A stretch of DNA of 64,000 nucleotides from Escherichia phage MLP3. Shown one piece after another: positions 366-50,140 of this stretch. Numbering within the stretch: the stretch's first letter is position 1; every line of letters starts with the position of its first letter. The position numbers were made by a program, and so were the translations under genes. Below the pieces are notes generated by a model, which saw only the letters and a list, made by a program, of their open reading frames with translations, was not told the DNA's origin and did no database searches. Location: sequence record OK148440. One strand, written 5' to 3'.

Positions 366-781
366 ATTAATATTTCCTTATATAAATTTAAGATTGTTGC
401 TCTCTTTGAGCGGTTTGTATACTATATACATTACACTTATACAGATAAGGTTCTATTATACTATAACCTTTTTGGTAGTAGATAATGACAAGTAGTAATG
501 TATATATGGTATAGCTAGTAAAGCTATTGCAGGCTTGTATATTGGGCAATTCATAGAATCCCTTGCAAGTACCGAAGGGCAGGAGCCACCTGCGAGATAA
601 AAATAGAGAATTAAGGAAATCCTTGATTTAGGTTGTAGGGACTCCTAGGGACTTTGATTCTCTATTTAAAAGAATATTAATTACTTACTACCTAAATAAT
701 TAACTAACTTACTTAAACCAAACTCAAGAATAATAGATAAAAAGATTATTCCTAAGAAAGCTAAAAAGTAAAGGATATAAG

Positions 782-6964: not shown

Positions 6965-7008
6965 AACTCCTTAATATATCAGTGTACACTAAGGAGTATA
7001 CATTATGT

Positions 7009-27192: not shown

Positions 27193-27212
27193 ACAACCTC
27201 TTCTTTGAGCTT

Positions 27213-27237
27213 AAAAAAGGACTCTCCTAAGAGAGCC
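27213..27237 (-). terminator. intrinsic terminator-like hairpin downstream of conserved element R1
   Basis: Minus strand GGCTCTC-TTAG-GAGAGTCC followed by TTTTTT. Confidence 0.45.
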
Positions 27238-27300
27238 AAGCTTTAAGGCCAATTAAATAGATATCACCCAATATCTGTGGATAACCTGCTCTTAAAATAT

Positions 27301-30551: not shown

Positions 30552-30627
30552 TGTGGTGCACCCTACAGGACTCGAACCTGTAACCAACGACTTAGAAGGT
30601 CGCTGCTCTGTCCGTTGAGCTAAGGGT
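30552..30627 (-). tRNA. tRNA-Arg (anticodon UCU)
   Basis: 76-nt cloverleaf folded by hand: acceptor GCACCCT/AGGGTGC, D-stem GCTC/GAGC, anticodon stem GCGAC/GTCGT with loop CTTCTAA, T-arm ACAGG-TTCGAGT-CCTGT, encoded CCA. Confidence 0.9.
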
Positions 30628-30638
30628 GCTGAATTTGT

Positions 30639-31451: not shown

Positions 31452-31756
31452 GACTTTGCAGCCTCCATCATTTTATTCATTTTAGCCACACCTTTACGGA
31501 TAAGAGGCATAAATTCATCAGCCAGTTCAGTGGATAAAAGTTTAAGCCCGCCTGATTTAATACCGTTCACCGCCTTCTCAACTTCATCCGACAGCAATGT
31601 CATTGTTAACCACGGGGATTTTATTACCACAGTAAAGCCTGGTTCATACCGCGAGTGACTGTAGGTGAACTCTAAATGAGTAACACCGGGCATCTTAGAC
31701 ATTTGAGCACGGATATCTACATTAGGGTTGCAGCGAGTTGAAGATGAAATTGTCAT
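31448..31756 (-). CDS. hypothetical protein
   Basis: 102-aa ORF. Confidence 0.5.
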   Translation of the reverse strand: MTISSSTRCNPNVDIRAQMSKMPGVTHLEFTYSHSRYEPGFTVVIKSPWLTMTLLSDEVEKAVNGIKSGGLKLLSTELADEFMPLIRKGVAKMNKMMEAAKS

Positions 31757-32094
31757 GGCGCTTTAATCTCAATCTGAACGTTGACGACGAATACAGTATG
31801 GTTTGCACTGTACACTGAAGTGCCTATGATTGGCTTATCATCACTGAGGATTTCAACAGCGTGCTCAAGGTTAATCTTCAGATGAAGACGCCCTGATTCC
31901 ATGAAGAAATCACCAGCACGTATCTCACCGAACTTAGCTGGCACACCGATAGAGGGTATCAGTATGTCAGTGCGACCTTTACGGTCAAATAAACGATTGA
32001 ACATATCAACCTCTCTTGTTAGTTTAAGTAAGAGTTGTCCCTTAATTAAAACAACAAAGGCCACCCCTAAGGGCAGCCTCTTATTTAAGCGCAA
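31753..32094 (-). CDS. hypothetical protein
   Basis: 113-aa ORF. Confidence 0.5.
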   Translation of the reverse strand: MRLNKRLPLGVAFVVLIKGQLLLKLTREVDMFNRLFDRKGRTDILIPSIGVPAKFGEIRAGDFFMESGRLHLKINLEHAVEILSDDKPIIGTSVYSANHTVFVVNVQIEIKAP

Positions 32095-32300
32095 GCACTA
32101 CGCAGTTTGTTATTCAAGAAGCGATCTTCTGCATTATACAGGAATGCATAGAACAACTCTTTTGCTACATCCCGATCGCAATTGAGACATTTAGAGATCT
32201 GTAACAACAAACCATCACGACTATTAGGATGATCAATTATCGCAAGACGAATAATCTCACGAATACCAATGTCATGCTCAGCCGCCATAGAACCAATCAC
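32085..32300 (-). CDS. hypothetical protein
   Basis: 71-aa ORF. Confidence 0.45.
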   Translation of the reverse strand: MIGSMAAEHDIGIREIIRLAIIDHPNSRDGLLLQISKCLNCDRDVAKELFYAFLYNAEDRFLNNKLRSACA

Positions 32301-32457
32301 CCTGACGTTTACGAATGTTAGTTGTCAGACGAAGCATGGCAGACTCAATCTTCAAAGCACCATTTGCTACTGCATCCATACGTTCAGGACGGTTCATACG
32401 TTTGGTTGTCTTTTTCATAATGTTCTCTCTTTATTGATGGAGGCAGGATTGCCAGTT

Positions 32458-32493
32458 AATATAAAGGGAAGCCCTACACGTTAAGGCTTCCGC
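32458..32493 (-). terminator. intrinsic terminator-like hairpin downstream of conserved element R2
   Basis: Minus strand GGAAGCC-loop-GGCTTCC (7 bp) followed by CTTTATATT. Confidence 0.45.
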
Positions 32494-32597
32494 TTGTACA
32501 AACTGTCGAGAACTCTCTACCCCTAGAATGTTCTCTATCCCAAACCGATACATACCCCTACATATCGGAATGCCATTCGAAAATTAACAGGTTTTAG

Positions 32598-32722
32598 TCT
32601 ATCACCGGATGTTTGAGACAAGTCTCTCCCTAGCGGTGAGCCATATGGCGTTGAGATTATAGTTAATTGAGGAACACCCTCACATAGCCCTCTGATAAAC
32701 ACAAGAGCTATAAGTCGATGTT
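32598..32722 (-). promoter_or_regulatory. conserved ~130-nt element R2 with hairpin (copy 2 of 2)
   Basis: Homolog of 27301..27436; hairpin 32684-32691/32704-32711; the single stem mismatch on the plus strand becomes a G-U pair in minus-sense RNA. Confidence 0.5.
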
Positions 32723-32945
32723 ACTTGTTGGTTAGTCGTGCGTTAGGTACAGGTCTGACTACAGTCGATTTACACTCAGAATCACGCTTACCTGTATAAA
32801 GGTTAACAAAATAACTTTTGTTTTCACCATAACACGCAGTACGCATGTAGTATTGAGTTTCATTGTAGTTAAACTGGAAGACTTCACCCGGATTTAGGTC
32901 TCCGAGAGTTACAACCTCTGGCGTACTATCAATGTCAATCTTCAT
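32721..32945 (-). CDS. small protein, paralog family B
   Basis: MKI...LGDLNPGEVFQFNYNETQYYM. Confidence 0.5.
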   Translation of the reverse strand: MKIDIDSTPEVVTLGDLNPGEVFQFNYNETQYYMRTACYGENKSYFVNLYTGKRDSECKSTVVRPVPNARLTNK

Positions 32946-33176
32946 TTAACCACCAATATTAGTCACTTGAACATCAAATACAGGGATAACTTCATGATGT
33001 TCCTGTAACTGGAATAGTGTTCCCTGACGAAGACCAACCACACGATGCATATCATTCAGGCAGGTGTCTGTCTTTAGATAGAGGTGTTCAGAGTTAGTTG
33101 GTAGACGGAATACATCACCCGGACGTAGATCGCTGAGTTTTTTAGTAACAACTAAAGATGGGAGATTAATTTTCAT
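32946..33176 (-). CDS. small protein, paralog family B
   Basis: MKI...LSDLRPGDVFRLPTNSEHLYL. Confidence 0.5.
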   Translation of the reverse strand: MKINLPSLVVTKKLSDLRPGDVFRLPTNSEHLYLKTDTCLNDMHRVVGLRQGTLFQLQEHHEVIPVFDVQVTNIGG

Positions 33177-33364
33177 TTGATTAACACCAAATCAGTACGA
33201 CGTTCGAAGGAAGGGGAGGATTCACCATTCCACTGAACAAGATAACAGAGAACACCATCAATCGTTGTTCTCCGACGAATAACACCTGTAACAGTTCCAC
33301 CAACAAGGCGAACGGTGTCGCCAACGGTAAATTTAACCTTTGATCGCATCTCCTGTTTCCTCAT
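33173..33364 (-). CDS. hypothetical protein
   Basis: 63-aa ORF. Confidence 0.45.
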   Translation of the reverse strand: MRKQEMRSKVKFTVGDTVRLVGGTVTGVIRRRTTIDGVLCYLVQWNGESSPSFERRTDLVLIK

Positions 33365-33638
33365 TCTGGCGTTTAATTTCTTCAGTGAGTTGTTTGTTTA
33401 GATCTTGAATACGCTTAATCTCCCAACCCAAAGAAGCCAAACGATCGTTACGTGCTTCGATTTGTTCCTGCATTTTGAGTAATTTGGAACGAACATCAGC
33501 ATTAAAAACTTCTTCTTGCTTAAGAAGGAACTCGTAACGACGCTTCCAGCTTGCTGATTTATTTCTTAAAATAATAAACCCTAGAGTAGAAACCGTTACA
33601 GTGAGTACGAAAAGGAACTTATAAACCTCTAAAGACAT
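33333..33638 (-). CDS. membrane-anchored coiled-coil protein (spanin- or FtsB-like architecture)
   Basis: N-terminal TM helix FLFVLTVTVSTLGFIIL followed by charged coiled-coil. Confidence 0.45.
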   Translation of the reverse strand: MSLEVYKFLFVLTVTVSTLGFIILRNKSASWKRRYEFLLKQEEVFNADVRSKLLKMQEQIEARNDRLASLGWEIKRIQDLNKQLTEEIKRQNEETGDAIKG

Positions 33639-33839
33639 ATCTTTATCCTCTTAAAGTAAGATATTATAAGAAATATTATTTAGAATTTATTATTTCTAAA
33701 CTTAATTTCTATCAATAATTTTCAGAGGTCTATATACAGTCATTACCTCTGGTCCCAAATCACTTCCACTTTTTACAGAGAAAATCATAAGTGTGTGATT
33801 TATAAGGAAATTTAGTTTGTCAATATTGGCACCTACGAA

Positions 33840-34226
33840 TCAGTCACGGGAGCTATTATTGAACACTAAATCACCACAATACATCGGATTGGTATACCAC
33901 TTTGGCACCCCTTCGCTCTTACTCTGAAAGTATGTACCACTGTATAAAGGCACATAATCTTTCTTCAGTGCACGCCTTGCAAGCCGCTCGCTTTCTCTGA
34001 TTGATTTCTTTATCAGAGGGTTATCATCACGAATTAGCTTTACATAACGCTTAAAAGGTTTCTCCTTCTTTAATAGGACGGGTATCCACTCGAACTGGTT
34101 TCGTTGATTTATAACCTGCTCGGCAGTCAGTTTTCGTTGTGACATTCTGTTTATTACGGTATCCGCTACTAATGCTTTGCAAGCGGTTGGCTGATTCCCT
34201 GCCTCATAATAAATAGTCAATGTCAA
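33840..34226 (-). CDS. SleB/CwlJ-like cell wall hydrolase domain protein (TTG start as in ORF track)
   Basis: LTIYYEAGNQP...ALVADTVINR resembles the Hydrolase_2 (SleB) N-terminal motif. Confidence 0.45.
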   Translation of the reverse strand: MTLTIYYEAGNQPTACKALVADTVINRMSQRKLTAEQVINQRNQFEWIPVLLKKEKPFKRYVKLIRDDNPLIKKSIRESERLARRALKKDYVPLYSGTYFQSKSEGVPKWYTNPMYCGDLVFNNSSRD

Positions 34227-34278
34227 AAGTAGCTGGGCTGTCGTTATCAGAACTTACTACCCCCTTGTTTTACGGGCA

Positions 34279-34307
34279 TAAAAAAGCCCCATCCGAAGAC
34301 GGGGCGA
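34279..34307 (-). terminator. rho-independent terminator
   Basis: Minus strand GCCCCGTC-TTCG-GATGGGGC (8-bp stem, one G-U) followed by TTTTTT. Confidence 0.6.
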
Positions 34308-34360
34308 CCTGAAAGAGTGAACATGACCTCACTCATTTAAGAATCCTCGTAAAGACTCTT

Positions 34361-34386
34361 AAAAAAGCGGCCTCGTTAAAGGCCCG
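34361..34386 (-). terminator. rho-independent terminator
   Basis: Minus strand GGCCT-loop-AGGCC followed by TTTTTT. Confidence 0.5.
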
Positions 34387-34465
34387 GTCAAATGACCATC
34401 CAATAGGGATTGAACCATGCCAATGATTCACAAAGGGAGTTCCCTTTAGGTATCACTAGCTACGC

Positions 34466-34486
34466 AAAAAGCCGCACAAAGGCGGC
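34466..34486 (-). terminator. rho-independent terminator
   Basis: Minus strand GCCGC-CTTTGT-GCGGC followed by TTTTT. Confidence 0.6.
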
Positions 34487-34507
34487 AGACAAAGACGCTC
34501 AAGAAGA

Positions 34508-34550
34508 GCGTCATAGTAGTTGACCACTGGTACAGAAGAGGGCTTACTTA
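34508..34550 (-). promoter_or_regulatory. bipartite conserved motif GCGTCATAGTAG-N14-AGAAGAGGGCTTAYTTA (copy B)
   Basis: Matches 28391..28432; preceded by hairpin GACGCTC-AAGAA-GAGCGTC (34494-34512). Confidence 0.4.
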
Positions 34551-34987
34551 ACTCTTGCTGTTTTGAGTGGGTCAATATATTTTTCAACTCCCCACTTATG
34601 TTTACTATCAGCGTAGAAAACATCTGGTGCACATTGGCTAGTAGTAGGAAATGCTTTCGGTGGCTTAGTGCTACCTTTATTCTTCTGCTTACCTTTAGTG
34701 CGACCGTTACAAAAGATTTCTAAACGCTTTTCTTGTTCCGTTTTCGCCGCCCCGTTGATTAACAAGGAACGCTTGTGATCAGCAAGAAGAAGCGCATCAG
34801 CACGATGAACACGACGACCTAGTACCTTTGGTACAGGAGATTCTTTATGTTCTTGAGCGGCCTGTTTCATAGCCCTGCGTTTAAGGCTACGTTTGCTAAT
34901 ATGGTTAACAGCGGCTGGCTTTTCTTTTTCCAGCTCATTCATAGAGAACACTCGTCCGCCTTTCATGCTGATTTTAGATTTAGCCAT
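34544..34987 (-). CDS. basic hypothetical protein
   Basis: 147-aa Lys/Arg-rich ORF. Confidence 0.5.
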   Translation of the reverse strand: MAKSKISMKGGRVFSMNELEKEKPAAVNHISKRSLKRRAMKQAAQEHKESPVPKVLGRRVHRADALLLADHKRSLLINGAAKTEQEKRLEIFCNGRTKGKQKNKGSTKPPKAFPTTSQCAPDVFYADSKHKWGVEKYIDPLKTARVK

Positions 34988-35057
34988 TGTTTTATTCCTT
35001 TCGCTGATAAATTATATCGTGCAAGCCTTACCACATAGCAAGGCTTAACCAAATAAC

Positions 35058-35267
35058 TTAATCAATTAAACTAAACGATTTCCAACTACGTGTAATTGCT
35101 ACCTTTTCGCCATCAAAGAGAACACTTACAGAGATCAGTTTACCGCGACAACTGGATACCGTGGTAATACGTCCGGTTAATGCCTTACCTTTATTCAGGT
35201 AGTGATAGCGGACACGACGTCCTAACAAACGAGTAGCTTTCTTCTCTAACGTGCTTAAGCTGGTCAT
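35058..35267 (-). CDS. hypothetical protein
   Basis: 69-aa ORF. Confidence 0.45.
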   Translation of the reverse strand: MTSLSTLEKKATRLLGRRVRYHYLNKGKALTGRITTVSSCRGKLISVSVLFDGEKVAITRSWKSFSLID

Positions 35268-35488
35268 TAAATAGCCCCTTTATATTGGAGTGATCTTACA
35301 CGACGATACATAACAGTTGATGCACTAATCGCCGCTTGTTTTCTTTCGTGCTCATGCTGATTCTTTCGAATCTTATCCATCTCGGCATCATTACGACGAC
35401 GTTGTAAGATTCTGCTACATTTGCGATGGTTATTATTAGCACGTGCTTTCTTACAGATAGGGCACAAATGGGATTGAGTTAAGATCAT
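35267..35488 (-). CDS. basic zinc-finger-like small protein
   Basis: CPICKK...HRKC motif; Arg/Lys-rich. Confidence 0.45.
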   Translation of the reverse strand: MILTQSHLCPICKKARANNNHRKCSRILQRRRNDAEMDKIRKNQHEHERKQAAISASTVMYRRVRSLQYKGAI

Positions 35489-35709
35489 TTGCGTAACCCC
35501 AGCTTACGAAGGAATCGGCCTAACTTAGTTTCTTGCGTGATAGTGTAAGTAACAGAGTTATCAATCAAGGCTTGTTCTTGAATCGGCGACGGATACCATT
35601 CACCGGTAAGAATGCATTTGCATTCGATTCCATATTTATCGGTTTTACGATAGGTCATGTTGTTGAGAATGTTACGATACATCTTAACTTCTGTTTTCAG
35701 TTTTGGCAT
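35485..35709 (-). CDS. hypothetical protein
   Basis: 74-aa ORF. Confidence 0.45.
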   Translation of the reverse strand: MPKLKTEVKMYRNILNNMTYRKTDKYGIECKCILTGEWYPSPIQEQALIDNSVTYTITQETKLGRFLRKLGLRK

Positions 35710-35764
35710 GGTGTTTATCTCTTTTTAGTTTCTTTGATTAGCACACTGAATCAATGCACTAGTA

Positions 35765-35797
35765 AAAGAAAAAGGCGCTACCCTTTCGAATAGCGCC
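35765..35797 (-). terminator. rho-independent terminator
   Basis: Minus strand GGCGCTA-loop-TAGCGCC followed by TTTTTCTTTT, downstream of 35817..36728. Confidence 0.55.
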
Positions 35798-35816
35798 TCA
35801 TGTGTTTTATTGTTGG

Positions 35817-36728
35817 TTATGCTGCCAGTTGACGCGCCGCCATAATCTCGGCAGCTTTGCGTAACACTTCCTCTTCTTCCTGCGCAGCTTTCTCATTAGC
35901 TTTGACAGTTGAAGCGTTTGAGATACGACCGCGAAGGTTAGACAATTTTTCAGTCATTTCATTGATCACCTTTTCCATTTCATCGGCGTACGAGTCCAGA
36001 GATTCAAGCTCTTTAGTTGAGGCATTAATCAGGTAGTCATCGCTGATAGAAACAGTTGAAGCGGTTACTTTCTTAAGGAGTGAATCGAAAGTTTTCTTAA
36101 CTTTGCCTACTTCTTCACTCAATGCGATAGTATTGTCAGAAGATGCGCCGTTGCGTTCATCTGCCAGTAGTGCCGCTTCAATACGGATTGCAGCCAGACG
36201 GTCAACCAGTGCATAAATATCCTGATTAAAGTTTTCGTTAACCTTCTGGTTGATCTGGTTTGCTACCGGAACATTGTCGTTGCAACCTTTGTAGAATGCT
36301 GGGTTATCAACCTGCACGTCTTCACCTTTAGCAAAGCGTTCAAAGGAATTAGACCAGCGGGCGCGGTTTTGTTCCATTTTGGCCTTAACTTGTTCCGGTT
36401 TAGCATCCTCTTTCGCTTTCGCTTCACCTTCCAGATTAATCCATTTCTTTTTACCGTTCGCCCCGTCGCTGTTGTACTTGATCGGGGTTAAGAAAGAGAT
36501 GGCAACCGCAATCACGTCTAAGTCACGATAACGCTCAGTTAACAAGAAATCAACCGCCGCCTGCAATACATCCAGTTTCTTACCGTTGGTGCGGAAGTGC
36601 TGCAAATGGCCTAACAGGAAGTTAGAAACATCTTGTTTGATTGCCGCGTTGTTGCTACGAATGTTGTTAGCCAGTGCATTAAAGCCGGATTCGTTAACCA
36701 GATTAAAAACTTTAGCCATGATATTCAC
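35817..36728 (-). CDS. hypothetical protein (303 aa)
   Basis: Long ORF; first gene after the 1.9-kb non-coding gap. Confidence 0.55.
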   Translation of the reverse strand: MNIMAKVFNLVNESGFNALANNIRSNNAAIKQDVSNFLLGHLQHFRTNGKKLDVLQAAVDFLLTERYRDLDVIAVAISFLTPIKYNSDGANGKKKWINLEGEAKAKEDAKPEQVKAKMEQNRARWSNSFERFAKGEDVQVDNPAFYKGCNDNVPVANQINQKVNENFNQDIYALVDRLAAIRIEAALLADERNGASSDNTIALSEEVGKVKKTFDSLLKKVTASTVSISDDYLINASTKELESLDSYADEMEKVINEMTEKLSNLRGRISNASTVKANEKAAQEEEEVLRKAAEIMAARQLAA

Positions 36729-37541
36729 CTTTCAATTGTAAGGGCACTATGCCCCGCTCTCTATGAGCTTTTTAAGTCACTATTGACTTATCAATAATCA
36801 CTCAATATCAAGTAATTATTGATAAGCGAGGCGGTCTTATCAGGAGTTAACCTTGCCGCCTCCTTATCCGTGATGTTTCATCTGGTATCTTTAATTAGTC
36901 GCTATAAATAAAGCCGACCTGATAGCGATGATCAATCATCACAATAAGGCAGTGCGTCCGACTCTATTTAATTACTTTATCGTAACCGTCGGCAATATCG
37001 TCTACTTTGCTTTCGCTCCCGCCTATCCTTTTGTACTAACTCTCAATCGCTAACCATCGCCCACTACGGGAGGTTATTGCGAAAGAGTCATTAGCCGTCT
37101 AATACATTGACGTTTTATATCTTTCAGCAGGTTTACTACATAAACTGATTATGTACGCCATCAATAGTGGCCTCAAATCATTCACATCGTAAACGTTCAC
37201 ACTAAACCTTATTGTTAAATAGCAATTTGCCACTTTTTAACCATTCACCGCCGCCCCCAATTGGGCGTTAATTCGTCGGATTTGCCTACCCTGATAAACT
37301 TCTTTCACTGTAGCACCTTGTTAGCGATGGCCGCCGCTACCCTTTAACCGTGGGCGATTAGTTTAGGCCGTTGCGTGTACTCAATGAATCCGTTTTATCA
37401 GTGGTGACGTTTCCAGTTAAGGGATTGTAAAAACTGTTTACCCTGATAATTTAGGGAGTCTTACGCCGTTTTATCTGGTATGTTTTCCGATGGTTATTAT
37501 CATCCAACATATTCAACCGATATAGGAGAATGTTTAAATTG

Positions 37542-37552
37542 TTAAAGAGCGG
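37542..37552 (+). promoter_or_regulatory. TTAAAGAGCGG motif copy 1
   Basis: Exact 11-mer repeated at 37772 and 37908, variant at 38311; followed by TATCAGTGTG. Confidence 0.3.
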
Positions 37553-37771
37553 TAAATCTATCAGTGTGCTTTCTCACACTATGCAACTGTTAGCCGTTGT
37601 TACGCTTTTCTTAAGCGGTGAATTGCTTAAGTGTGCTCATTATGAATCATGCTGTTTTAGCTGTCAACCGCTTTTTAATCTTTTTCGTCGTTCCCTTTAT
37701 TGGGAGGATATATCAATCAGCTATATTTGATTGAAGATTAAGCGGTAAGGCTTAACTCGCGATTCATATTT

Positions 37772-37782
37772 TTAAAGAGCGG
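37772..37782 (+). promoter_or_regulatory. TTAAAGAGCGG motif copy 2
   Basis: Exact 11-mer; followed by TATCAGAGTG. Confidence 0.3.
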
Positions 37783-37907
37783 TGTTTCTTACTGCTTGGT
37801 GAACATTCTATCAGAGTGTTTCACCTTGTCAACTCTTTTTATCATCTTCTTTTATTCTATTCCCTTATCTCGCTTGAATCTATGCGAAAGGGCAAGATGA
37901 TAAATTG

Positions 37908-37918
37908 TTAAAGAGCGG
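37908..37918 (+). promoter_or_regulatory. TTAAAGAGCGG motif copy 3
   Basis: Exact 11-mer preceded by AAATTG as in copy 1; followed by TATCATAGTG. Confidence 0.3.
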
Positions 37919-38052
37919 GGCACTAAGTGCCGGATGTTTCAAGTCATCGCTGACCGTGTGAACATCTTATCATAGTGATTCGATGTGTCAACAACTATTT
38001 TTCGATTAATGCATCTTGATAAACTAGCGACCATTAAGGCCGCTAACCTACC

Positions 38053-38253
38053 TCAGTTCATACGTTTAAAGGTTAAATCTTTATCCGTACTTACCAGCGA
38101 AAGCACCGCAATAGCTTTGCCTTTATCGGCATCGGCTACCATCTCTTTAGCTTGCTGTAGCGTACTACCGACTATTCTCATAATCATGTTAGTAACGTTA
38201 ATGCTAGTGCAAGTGATTTGCGTGTCTTTGCTTGAGAAGGTGTAAATATTCAT
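38053..38253 (-). CDS. small hypothetical protein (66 aa)
   Basis: ATG at 38253 with TGAGGA SD 8 nt upstream (ORF-track ORF 38053..38292 trimmed). Confidence 0.35.
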   Translation of the reverse strand: MNIYTFSSKDTQITCTSINVTNMIMRIVGSTLQQAKEMVADADKGKAIAVLSLVSTDKDLTFKRMN

Positions 38254-38310
38254 TGATAAATCCTCATTATGGCATGGTTGGGAGTTTATCAAGATACACT
38301 AATCAGATTC

Positions 38311-38320
38311 TTAAAGAGCA
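38311..38320 (+). promoter_or_regulatory. TTAAAGAGCA variant motif copy 4
   Basis: Variant of the 11-mer. Confidence 0.2.
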
Positions 38321-38568
38321 AGGCTAAACATCTAGCCTATCAGGAGGTAATTTACTGCGTCACGTCCTGACAAGATTCAATATACACTATCCTAAAACCG
38401 TTGCAAGCCTTTTTCTAAAATAATTTCACTTTCTTTTAGGCATAGAGGAACACGCGCACGAATAGCATCAAGGGAGGAAGAAAACAAGCCTTATAATCGA
38501 AAATAAGGCATACAGGAGGCGTTCTAACGAGCTAAACAGGGGCAAGATGTGCAATCACCTTAGAAATG

Positions 38569-49515: not shown

Positions 49516-50039
49516 CAGTAGACAGTGTGACTGTTAGCCCTGCGTCTTTAGCAAGCCTAGAGACAGGGGCTACTCGGCAGTTCACTGCAAGCGCGGAGAA
49601 AAGTGATGGTTCTACCGAAACAACTGGCTTTACTTGGTCAGTGACAGGAGGTGGTTCTATCACTCAGTCGGGTTTGTATACTGCTCCGAGTGCGTCTCAA
49701 TCCACTGATGTATCCATTACTGCAACTTTAGAAGGTGTTTCTGGTACAGCAACCATTTCTGAAATTGTTGCTCCTGCTCCTACTATTGTAGCTAAGGGTC
49801 CAATTACGGGTAAAACTGGTGGTTCTTCCACTAACTTCACTACCATGTTTACTGTAACTAATTCTACTGCTGCGGATTACACGTTTGTTGTAACCCCTAC
49901 AGAAGCTGGTACAGTAAGCGCCGCTGGTGCGTTAACCTTAGATGCTGCTGCAAGTGGCGAAGTTACTGTTCAAGCAAGTTTGACAGCTGACCCGTCCATC
50001 AATGCAACATGCACTTTTACTGGTGTAACACCTGCTTAA
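49497..50039 (+). CDS. Ig-like (Big_2-type) C-terminal extension of capsid protein, expressed by -1 frameshift (long form)
   Basis: -1 frame from the slippery site is open to 50039; Thr/Ser/Gly-rich beta-strand sequence typical of Ig-like domains; no SD for an independent start at 49527. Confidence 0.5.
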   Translation, partial: GKGGGVTVDSVTVSPASLASLETGATRQFTASAEKSDGSTETTGFTWSVTGGGSITQSGLYTAPSASQSTDVSITATLEGVSGTATISEIVAPAPTIVAKGPITGKTGGSSTNFTTMFTVTNSTAADYTFVVTPTEAGTVSAAGALTLDAAASGEVTVQASLTADPSINATCTFTGVTPA

Positions 50040-50046
50040 AACTAGA

Positions 50047-50076
50047 CCCTGCCTTCGGGCGGGGTTTTTTCGTTTT
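50047..50076 (+). terminator. rho-independent terminator after capsid module
   Basis: CCCTGCC-TTCG-GGCGGGG followed by TTTTTT. Confidence 0.7.
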
Positions 50077-50140
50077 AAGACCTATACAAGCTAGTGTGTA
50101 ATGTATATTCTTTGTCTACATATAACAAGGAGGACAACCT

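Follow-up and report, generated by a model that had tools for sequence, protein, structure and literature searches.

A cluster of predicted intrinsic terminators in a cassette-insertion gap of the early operon of Escherichia phage MLP3

The window analyzed here is the whole 64,000-nucleotide (nt) stretch of Escherichia phage MLP3 (sequence record OK148440), a Suseptimavirus/phiEco32-like coliphage, and our subject is a 319-nt non-coding gap (34227-34545) that contains a cluster of predicted Rho-independent terminators. Up to about 38 kb, the genes of the window are encoded on the minus strand, and past that point they are on the plus strand, in agreement with the GC skew; the gap lies between two minus-strand genes. 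The gene ahead of it encodes a basic early protein of 147 amino acids (aa), which is a member of PHROG 11641 (function unknown) and has homologues of 77-100% identity in 97 phage records. The gene behind it encodes a cell-wall hydrolase. Over 1.3 kb around the cluster, identity amounts to 98.7% with Escherichia phage IME267 and to 92-98% with other Suseptimavirus-type phages (SU7, Bas86-88, EK010, PAS59, NC-B), and the flanks of the locus are about 80-87% identical to those of the Kuravirus phages SU10 and phiEco32. Synteny across the locus is complete in 22 records.

A consensus terminator scan found four terminator-like hairpins, T1 to T4, on the minus strand between 34278 and 34512 (Table 1). 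The original prediction had described three hairpin-plus-T-run terminators in tandem; all three were recovered as T2, T3, and T4, while T1 had been overlooked. Each of the four has a GC-rich stem-loop on the transcribed strand. The U-tract follows the stem directly in T2 (UUUUU) and T4 (UUUUUU), is offset in T3, and is poor in T1 (UUUGUCU). The hairpin energies amount to -11.3, -7.9, -7.9, and -14.8 kcal/mol for T1, T2, T3, and T4, respectively. By these features, T4 is predicted to be the strongest of the four and a textbook canonical intrinsic terminator, T3 appears to be a moderate terminator closing a lineage-specific insert, and T1 would be a weak terminator or a 3'-end hairpin directly after the 147-aa gene. 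A re-implemented scan of the whole window returned 47 minus-strand matches, and the four within 260 nt form its densest cluster. Since the largest cluster in 30 first-order Markov simulations comprised one or two matches, three on one occasion and four never, the clustering of T1 to T4 goes beyond chance. Folding of the whole gap gave z = -5.6 for the minus strand and z = -4.5 for the plus strand.

Table 1. Predicted features of the gap, its flanking genes and its upstream context, with positions in the window.
Feature	Position	Strand	Description
T1	34487..34512	minus	7-bp hairpin GACGCTC/GAGCGTC (5 GC), scan 34512-34494; weak tail TTTGTCT (TTTGTCTG)
T2	34463..34486	minus	GCCGC-CUUUGU-GCGGC, scan 34486-34471; 5 bp, all GC; U5 tail (TTTTTGCG; UUUUUGCG)
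hp4	34420..34459	minus	40-nt irregular hairpin, -15.7 kcal/mol; inverted repeat I1; within the lineage-specific insert of about 100 nt
hp5 + hp6	34386..34418	minus	Two short hairpins; hp6 is GGTCA-TT-TGACC; in minimum-free-energy and centroid folds
T3	34361..34384	minus	GGCCUU-UAAC-GAGGCC, scan 34384-34369; 6 bp (4 GC), 2-nt GC spacer, then UUUUUU
hp8	34336..34363	minus	10-bp hairpin, apical loop UUUACGAG; 5' arm overlaps the T3 U-tract
hp9	34315..34334	minus	6-bp hairpin, conserved 8-nt loop GGUCAUGU
Linker	34306..34314	minus	Conserved, single-stranded UUUCAGGUC between hp9 and T4; from alignment
T4	34278..34305	minus	GCCCCGUC-UUCG-GAUGGGGC plus UUUUUUAU; scan 34305-34286; 8-bp stem (6 GC), U6 tail (TTTTTTAT)
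Hydrolase ribosome-binding region	34242..34266	minus	AAGGGGGU, then CUG 8 nt on; beside the hydrolase gene in all variants
147-aa basic early protein	34544..34987	minus	phiEco32 gp120/SU10_0117 homologue; final gene ahead of the terminator stack
SleB-like cell-wall hydrolase gene	33840..34226	minus	phiEco32 gp117 homologue; Pfam Hydrolase_2, E = 2.8e-7; without own promoter
Strong sigma-70-type early promoters	37991-37964, 37832-37805, 37667-37639	minus	Promoter scan
Weaker sigma-70-type promoter	38406-38379	minus	Promoter scan
BoxA sites	38319-38309, 37916-37906, 37780-37770, 37550-37540	minus	Perfect GYTCTTTAANA, one after each promoter
Four BoxA elements with adjacent hairpins	37532..38338	minus	Early-promoter leaders feeding the operon, about 3 kb upstream of the stack
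Upstream terminator	35772-35799	minus	12-bp stem, -18.9 kcal/mol, tail TTTCTTTT; behind the 303-aa gene that opens the early unit

The gap as a whole is 94-99% identical across about 21 phage records, and comparison with more distant relatives separates its older parts from its newer ones. In the Kuravirus SU10, the same flanking genes enclose a gap of 241 nt with the order T1-like hairpin, C-rich spacer, T2, hp8, hp9, and T4. The window lineage carries about 100 nt more between the T2 tail and hp8, a non-coding stretch made up of hp4, hp5, hp6, and T3; T3 is accordingly missing from Kuravirus-type gaps. T2 was found in all relatives examined, its stem being broken in E20-1 only, and T4 is nearly family-wide, with a different terminator at its position in ShigP1. 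Both occur in the Kuravirus, Nieuwekanaalvirus, and Suseptimavirus records examined. The T1 hairpin is retained in Kuravirus without a U-run and is lost from Bas89, 4E8, and KBNP1711. Taken together, the aligned gaps show T2 and T4 as the ancestral pair and T3 as a terminator that arrived with the lineage-specific non-coding insert.

Other relatives carry genes at this place. In KBNP1711, 172-1, and ev_rybdy8, an open reading frame (ORF) of 40 aa stands between T2 and T4 in place of hp8 and hp9. Its product (MESAISYLGEGGFFFLCGMLFGVIITLLILMIGFMEAVSR; about 2250-2370 in the KBNP1711 stretch, 1324-1446 in the 172-1 stretch) is very hydrophobic and may be a small membrane peptide or toxin-like. 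In phiEco32 (stretch 1602-2535) and ShigP1 (about 1660-2562), a gene for an 'adhesin' with signal peptide and collagen repeats lies behind T4 or, in ShigP1, its substitute terminator, and in 172-1 (stretch 1502-1819) and pEC-N1203, a gene of the XRE-type helix-turn-helix (HTH) class lies directly behind T4. The adhesin and HTH genes start about 20 nt past the preceding terminator with no promoter-like site between, and each is followed by a terminator of its own, of the type CCTCTCCC-GAAA-GGGAGGGG, the stem of which varies by record. EP335 and ev_rybdy8 (544-717 in each stretch) have an extra ORF of 57 aa before T1 that overlaps the gp120 homologue at its stop codon (TAAAATGA); its product looks coiled coil-like by eye. 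The relatives thus display at least five states of the gap, in which variable inserts bounded by terminators sit between conserved flanks, and no promoter accompanies the inserts. The original prediction had reasoned that one terminator would suffice to end the upstream operon. This argument leaves out of account the weak to moderate strength of T1 to T3 and the fact that the gap is a hotspot of cassette exchange in which terminators come and go with the inserts.

The edge of the gap is itself a place of exchange. ECBP2 is a mosaic, with a gp120-like gene of Kuravirus type (71.8% DNA identity to the window) next to a gap (97.2%) and a hydrolase gene (97%) of window type. In TH34, TH42, TH43, and Bas88, the sequence breaks as it does in ECBP2, close to the gp120 homologue's stop codon, and this shared break marks the gap edge as a recombination junction. 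Such observations would also suit a plainer explanation, namely that the terminators are by-products of cassette turnover, left behind or carried in, and that the extra hairpins provide only redundancy or recombination linkers, as in morons or the PeSL cassettes of T4. The high variability of the gap among relatives, the terminator carried by each insert, the position of T3 inside a lineage-specific insert, and the junction in ECBP2 and the TH phages all speak for it. We nevertheless consider turnover quite improbable as the full account, because the non-terminator hairpins hp8 and hp9 keep their pairing through compensatory and G·U changes and because substitutions avoid the stems, as detailed below.

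The spacer stem-loops noted in the original prediction, AAGAGTC...GATTCTT and AGTGA...TCACT, correspond to hp8 and hp9, respectively, and both are conserved with compensatory changes. Covariation was assessed over 15 sequences from three lineages (window type, SU10 type, and EP335 type). In hp8, four of ten pairs have changed on both sides, with 96% of cells paired and the register kept around the loop UUU(A/G)CGAG. In hp9, all six pairs have changed on both sides between lineages, giving the stems GAGUGA/UCACUC, AGCAAC/GUUGCU, and UGCAAU/AUUGCU (with no pairing at the outermost position of the EP335 type), and across the two hairpins 96-97% of cells remain paired. The hp9 loop has stayed constant as (G/A)GUCAUGU, with the GUCAUGU positions invariant. 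T4 shows one compensatory exchange, from U-A to G-C. When the 3' partners were slid by one to three columns as a control, at most 53% of cells paired and the double changes nearly vanished.

Substitutions within the window lineage follow the same pattern. Its 22 variable columns comprise 13 unpaired and 9 paired ones, as against 66% of all columns being paired. Five of the six changes that fall in solid stems still pair (G·U to G-C or A-U), and the sixth is the one that breaks T2 in E20-1. In T3, a U>C change in TH42 converts a U·G pair to C-G. Substitutions in hp4 are confined to loop or bulge positions, and hp5 and hp6 are weak, with one pair broken in Bas86. Since G·U pairing is possible only in the minus-strand RNA, the selected object would be this transcript and not the DNA or the opposite strand. 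The alignments therefore identify hp8 and hp9 as a conserved minus-strand RNA structure in the T3-T4 spacer.

Searches of metagenomes left this picture unchanged. A pattern search of IMG/VR with GGTCATGT-N-TTTCAGGT returned at least 120 chance matches and was uninformative, whereas a tighter pattern gave 61 matches, 7 of them genuine and all from the same three lineages, so that the known diversity did not increase; one metagenomic variant adds a further wobble change in hp9. Within the window, a covariance model of the hp9-linker-T4 unit otherwise matched only generic terminators, at 27209-27250 and 50010-50075, and found no second copy of the unit. Being single-copy in the window, the unit is not a repeated cassette. 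Short internal motif repeats in the gap (TTTACGAGG/TTAACGAGG; CCTTTGTG twice; GGTCAT twice) are too short for interpretation.

A conserved structure of this kind raises the question of whether the spacers give rise to trans-acting, stable small RNAs (sRNAs), as the original prediction had proposed. The candidates would be an hp8-hp9-T4 RNA of about 90-100 nt and possibly an hp4-hp5-hp6-T3 RNA of about 100 nt, generated by termination and/or RNase processing in the manner of sRNAs derived from 3' untranslated regions (UTRs), with the hp9 loop GGUCAUGU and the linker UUUCAGGU as interacting surfaces. A hairpin, a U-rich linker, a strong terminator, and a U-tail form the typical 3' module of Hfq-class sRNAs, which fits the arrangement. 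The sequence of the hp9 loop and linker has been kept while the hp9 stem was wholly swapped by compensatory changes, and the unit, present in a single copy, is confined to this phage family. The proposal stands as far as the structured nature of the spacers is concerned, given the covariation in hp8 and hp9, and finds no support where it supposed independent expression. The promoter scan found no sigma-70-like promoter in 34227-34545, and the motif of the phage sigma factor gp36, TAATGTATA, has no match with zero or one mismatch from 31724 to 38381. Furthermore, the hp8-hp9 unit is dispensable, because a peptide gene replaces it in the three relatives named above, and the hp8 loop varies within the lineage (UUUA/G/U-C/A-GAG). 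Nor did the proposed check for a known RNA family identify one: Rfam 15 gave nothing at gathering scores in the gap, the top sub-threshold match being anti-hemB (20.3 bits against a threshold of 49.5). BLAST against 5,426 E. coli genomes found no homologue of the gap, and the sole RNA gene that ARAGORN reported in the window is a tRNA-Arg at 30554-30629. We regard trans-acting sRNAs of this kind as the main rival explanation and as unlikely; small RNAs may still arise by termination or processing.

The second suggestion of the original prediction, a multi-step attenuator ahead of the hydrolase gene, would correspond to a classical attenuator or riboswitch in which alternative folds choose T3 or T4. 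Several hairpins do precede a promoterless gene, and in the SU10 type two copies of GUUGCU are available, each able to pair with AGCAAC. The window lineage has nothing that corresponds to this choice of partners, however, and there is no competitor sequence for the 5' arm of T4 or T3; among the folds of 12 relatives, no conserved alternative (antiterminator) pairing over any terminator arm was found. A long-range helix between the beginning of the gap and the ribosome-binding site of the hydrolase gene in the minimum-free-energy fold of the window was not reproduced in relatives and was dropped. No Rfam aptamer was detected, and a leader peptide is excluded by 1-nt indels. An attenuator thus appears very improbable, and this part of the original prediction was not borne out.

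The same indels bear on whether the gap is coding. The records of Bas86, Bas87, and Bas88 annotate two tiny coding sequences in it, of 32 aa (34333-34431) and 29 aa (34247-34336). The ORFs do exist, and a GAGG motif lies 8 nt ahead of the second ATG, but both cross terminator stems. Among near-identical phages they are frameshifted by a 1-nt deletion in CACUCUUUC (SU7, TH42, PAS59, IME267), by a 1-nt deletion in the T3 U-run (SU7), and by a 1-nt insertion (NJ01), and they are not annotated in SU7, PAS59, IME267, or E20-1. The frameshifting indels and the overlap with terminator stems indicate over-annotation in the three Bas records, and we find two genuine tiny proteins hardly credible.

The meaning of the stack depends on what lies on either side of it. 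As the original prediction had noted, the stack precedes the SleB-like gene; the gene follows it directly, and the promoter scan found no promoter between T4 and this gene. Because the hydrolase gene stands directly behind the stack without a promoter of its own, the stack must limit its transcription. On the upstream side, the genome paper of SU10 assigns the equivalent region to the early class, transcribed by sigma-70 polymerase of the host, and confines the early promoters to two locations, upstream of CDS125 and between CDS120 and CDS121, with none further down to CDS69; the four terminators tabulated there are all outside this gap. Our promoter scan of the window finds three strong and one weaker sigma-70-type promoter (Table 1) ahead of a promoter-proximal unit of five genes that would extend from the 303-aa ORF to the 147-aa gp120 homologue. 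The terminator after the first gene of this unit is followed by three small ORFs with no convincing promoter between, and it seems to be a second place that needs read-through.

Three strong tandem early promoters feeding a long polycistronic RNA are also reminiscent of T7, and the hairpins could accordingly be sites of processing or stabilization by RNase III or RNase E, like those between the early mRNAs of T7, with incidental U-runs. Long irregular duplexes are present as hp4 in the window and, in SU10, as a 17-bp form of hp8. We find this highly doubtful, since T2 and T4 have the geometry of textbook terminators with U5-U6 tails right after GC-rich stems, and since hp4 is absent from most of the family.

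All four early leaders contain a perfect match to GYTCTTTAANA, the gamma-proteobacterial BoxA consensus (PMC5725501). The consensus occurs five times in the whole window, against 0.61 expected, and four of these matches lie in the early leaders on the transcribed strand; none of 100 shuffles attained the observed number. A hairpin lies close upstream of three of the four sites, abutting BoxA in two and about 11 nt away in the third, with unrelated loops. The sequence CGCTCTTTAACAATTTATCA at 37917-37898 is identical over its 20 bases to a segment of a 16S rRNA operon leader of E. coli IAI39, right after the boxB hairpin, as found by BLAST. The arrangement of BoxA leaders is kept in SU10, SU7, and phiEco32, and no BoxA consensus occurs in the last 8 kb of Salmonella phage 7-11. 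No paper linking boxA to phiEco32 was found in the literature searched. T1 was also considered as a BoxA element, but CGCTCTTC (in Kuravirus CGCTCTTTC) departs from GYTCTTTAANA at three positions, and the idea was dropped.

With confidence that is about evenly balanced, we favor a reading in which the gap holds a graded fail-safe stack of four Rho-independent terminators that closes the promoter-proximal early unit within the cassette-insertion gap of the family, and in which downstream genes are reached by read-through. Most polymerases would stop at T2, T3, or T4 and leave gp120 mRNAs with hairpin-protected 3' ends of three lengths, with hp8 and hp9 in a structured 3' UTR. The hydrolase gene, and in relatives the cassette genes, would be transcribed only by polymerases that read through. 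Since these genes are promoterless and lie directly behind terminators, some polymerases must pass them. Such read-through would fall to polymerases that host Nus factors and SuhB have modified at the rrn-like BoxA leaders some 3 kb upstream. An rrn antitermination complex with SuhB does suppress an intrinsic terminator in vitro (PMC6614801). The stack would in this way set a low, polymerase-state-dependent level of downstream expression and block unmodified polymerases. The terminators themselves appear to be of an ordinary kind, while their arrangement is unannotated, conserved, and modular. As a whole, the gap has the appearance of a gate on transcription at a hotspot of gene insertion, and not that of a set of independent small-RNA genes.

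Several points weigh against this graded stack with read-through. A candidate promoter lies past the hydrolase gene near 33660 (33657-33700, minus strand), in AT-rich sequence with a perfect TATAAT -10 element about 20 nt upstream of the next gene (start 33638), and a promoter is annotated there in SU7 and 4E8; if it is real, strict dependence on read-through is limited to the hydrolase gene. In the absence of lambda N, BoxA/Nus complexes are chiefly known to counteract Rho, not intrinsic terminators (PMC5725501), so BoxA may only shield an ORF-poor early RNA from Rho. The gap is conserved (93-98%) to about the same degree as the neighboring hydrolase gene (95-99%), and being no better conserved than that gene, its conservation alone is not evidence of selection. 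The covariation, for its part, draws on only about three independent lineages. Finally, we infer termination efficiency, read-through, and the connection with BoxA alike from sequence.

A more far-reaching model can be put forward tentatively, although we think it unlikely to hold in full. Virulent phiEco32-like phages may copy the host rrn leader, with its hairpin and BoxA, behind each early promoter, so that Nus/SuhB-modified polymerase passes the terminators that gate delayed early genes and cassettes. The hp8-hp9-T4 RNA would then be a functional partner of the gate, modulating T4 in cis or being released as a regulatory RNA, and the 147-aa protein might be an N-like cofactor. With a lambda N sequence entered by hand as query, BLASTP gave two weak colinear matches in this protein, one of RSLKRRAMKQA to the arginine-rich motif (E = 0.56) and one of IFCNGRTKGKQKNKGSTKP to the C-terminal end that binds RNA polymerase (E = 0.075); searches of Pfam, PHROGs, and the PDB gave no support for a relationship to lambda N.

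The gap can be compared with several well-characterized systems. Like E. coli rrnB T1-T2 and lambda tL1/tR1, the latter downstream of N and nut, it stacks GC-rich hairpins with U-tails along the direction of transcription, and as with tL1/tR1, the stack lies a few genes past strong early promoters with BoxA leaders and is followed by genes without promoters of their own. In contrast to these systems, the gap packs four sites into 230 nt, and conserved hairpins that are not terminators stand between them. It also differs from lambda in that no N-like protein is established and in that this virulent podovirus later switches to its own sigma factor gp36, and not to antitermination, for its late genes. 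The early leaders resemble the E. coli rrn leader (boxB hairpin and boxA), BoxA-regulated genes, and CRISPR arrays in having a perfect GYTCTTTAANA just past the promoters. Unlike in the rrn leader, however, the phage BoxA stands on the early transcript of a lytic phage, about 3 kb from the stack, and its function is putative.

A second group of likenesses concerns the inserts and the hairpins. Morons were reportedly described by Juhala et al. in 2000 and T4-type PeSL mobile regulatory cassettes by Arbiol et al. in 2010. As in these systems, accessory ORFs come and go between two conserved genes, and near-identical stem-loops or terminators bound the cassettes and coincide with recombination junctions. 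The cassettes at this locus differ in having no promoter, and the slot of the window is occupied by non-coding structured RNA with no ORF. Phage and bacterial sRNAs that are derived from 3' UTRs or otherwise processed include lambda OOP, P1 c4, P4 CI, and those of the CpxQ type. The candidate hp8-hp9-T4 unit resembles them in joining hairpins to a terminator with its U-tail and in lacking a dedicated promoter, and it could likewise be released from a longer transcript; it has no sequence or Rfam relationship to them. The put RNA of phage HK022 consists of two adjacent conserved stem-loops on the early transcript, close to the promoter, that act on distant terminators. By description only, hp8 and hp9 can be likened to it as two adjacent conserved stem-loops upstream of a terminator on an early transcript, whereas 9 nt separate them from T4 and 3 kb separate them from the promoters.

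The interest of the locus lies in the role of phiEco32 as a model for phage control of host RNA polymerase through the sigma factor gp36 and through gp79. On published maps, early promoters are confined to the operon's far end, and these terminators go unmentioned. A terminator stack 3 kb into the early operon implies more than simple co-transcription of the early genes. Either expression over most of the operon amounts to a small fraction of that near the promoters, or polymerase acquires resistance to termination, for which the BoxA leaders offer a concrete and testable route. In the words of the authors who studied a related phage, antitermination 'remains to be defined' (PMC8948821). The gap, moreover, accepts foreign genes naturally, and as an insertion site it is useful in the engineering of Kuravirus and Suseptimavirus phages for therapy.

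Two further observations concern the start of the hydrolase gene and the gp36 motif. The segment with AGGAGG or GGGGG followed by GTTCTGATAAC, which forms the ribosome-binding region, always travels with the hydrolase gene. The hydrolase ORF has no in-frame ATG, and its mechanical start is a TTG at 34226, 32 nt from the strong Shine-Dalgarno sequence GGGGG (34266-34259). A conserved CTG at 34250 stands 8 nt past GGGGG and is immediately preceded by in-frame TAG TAA stops. The CTT of the window at 34229-34227, just upstream of the TTG, corresponds to an ATG in Kuraviruses, which nevertheless keep the arrangement of Shine-Dalgarno sequence and CTG. From this arrangement, a CTG start of the hydrolase seems possible. 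As for the gp36 motif, the number of TAATGTATA sites at one mismatch is not above chance across the window, and the exact copies at 425-433 (minus), 496-504 (plus), 6997-7005 (minus), and 50099-50107 (plus) are candidate middle or late promoters.

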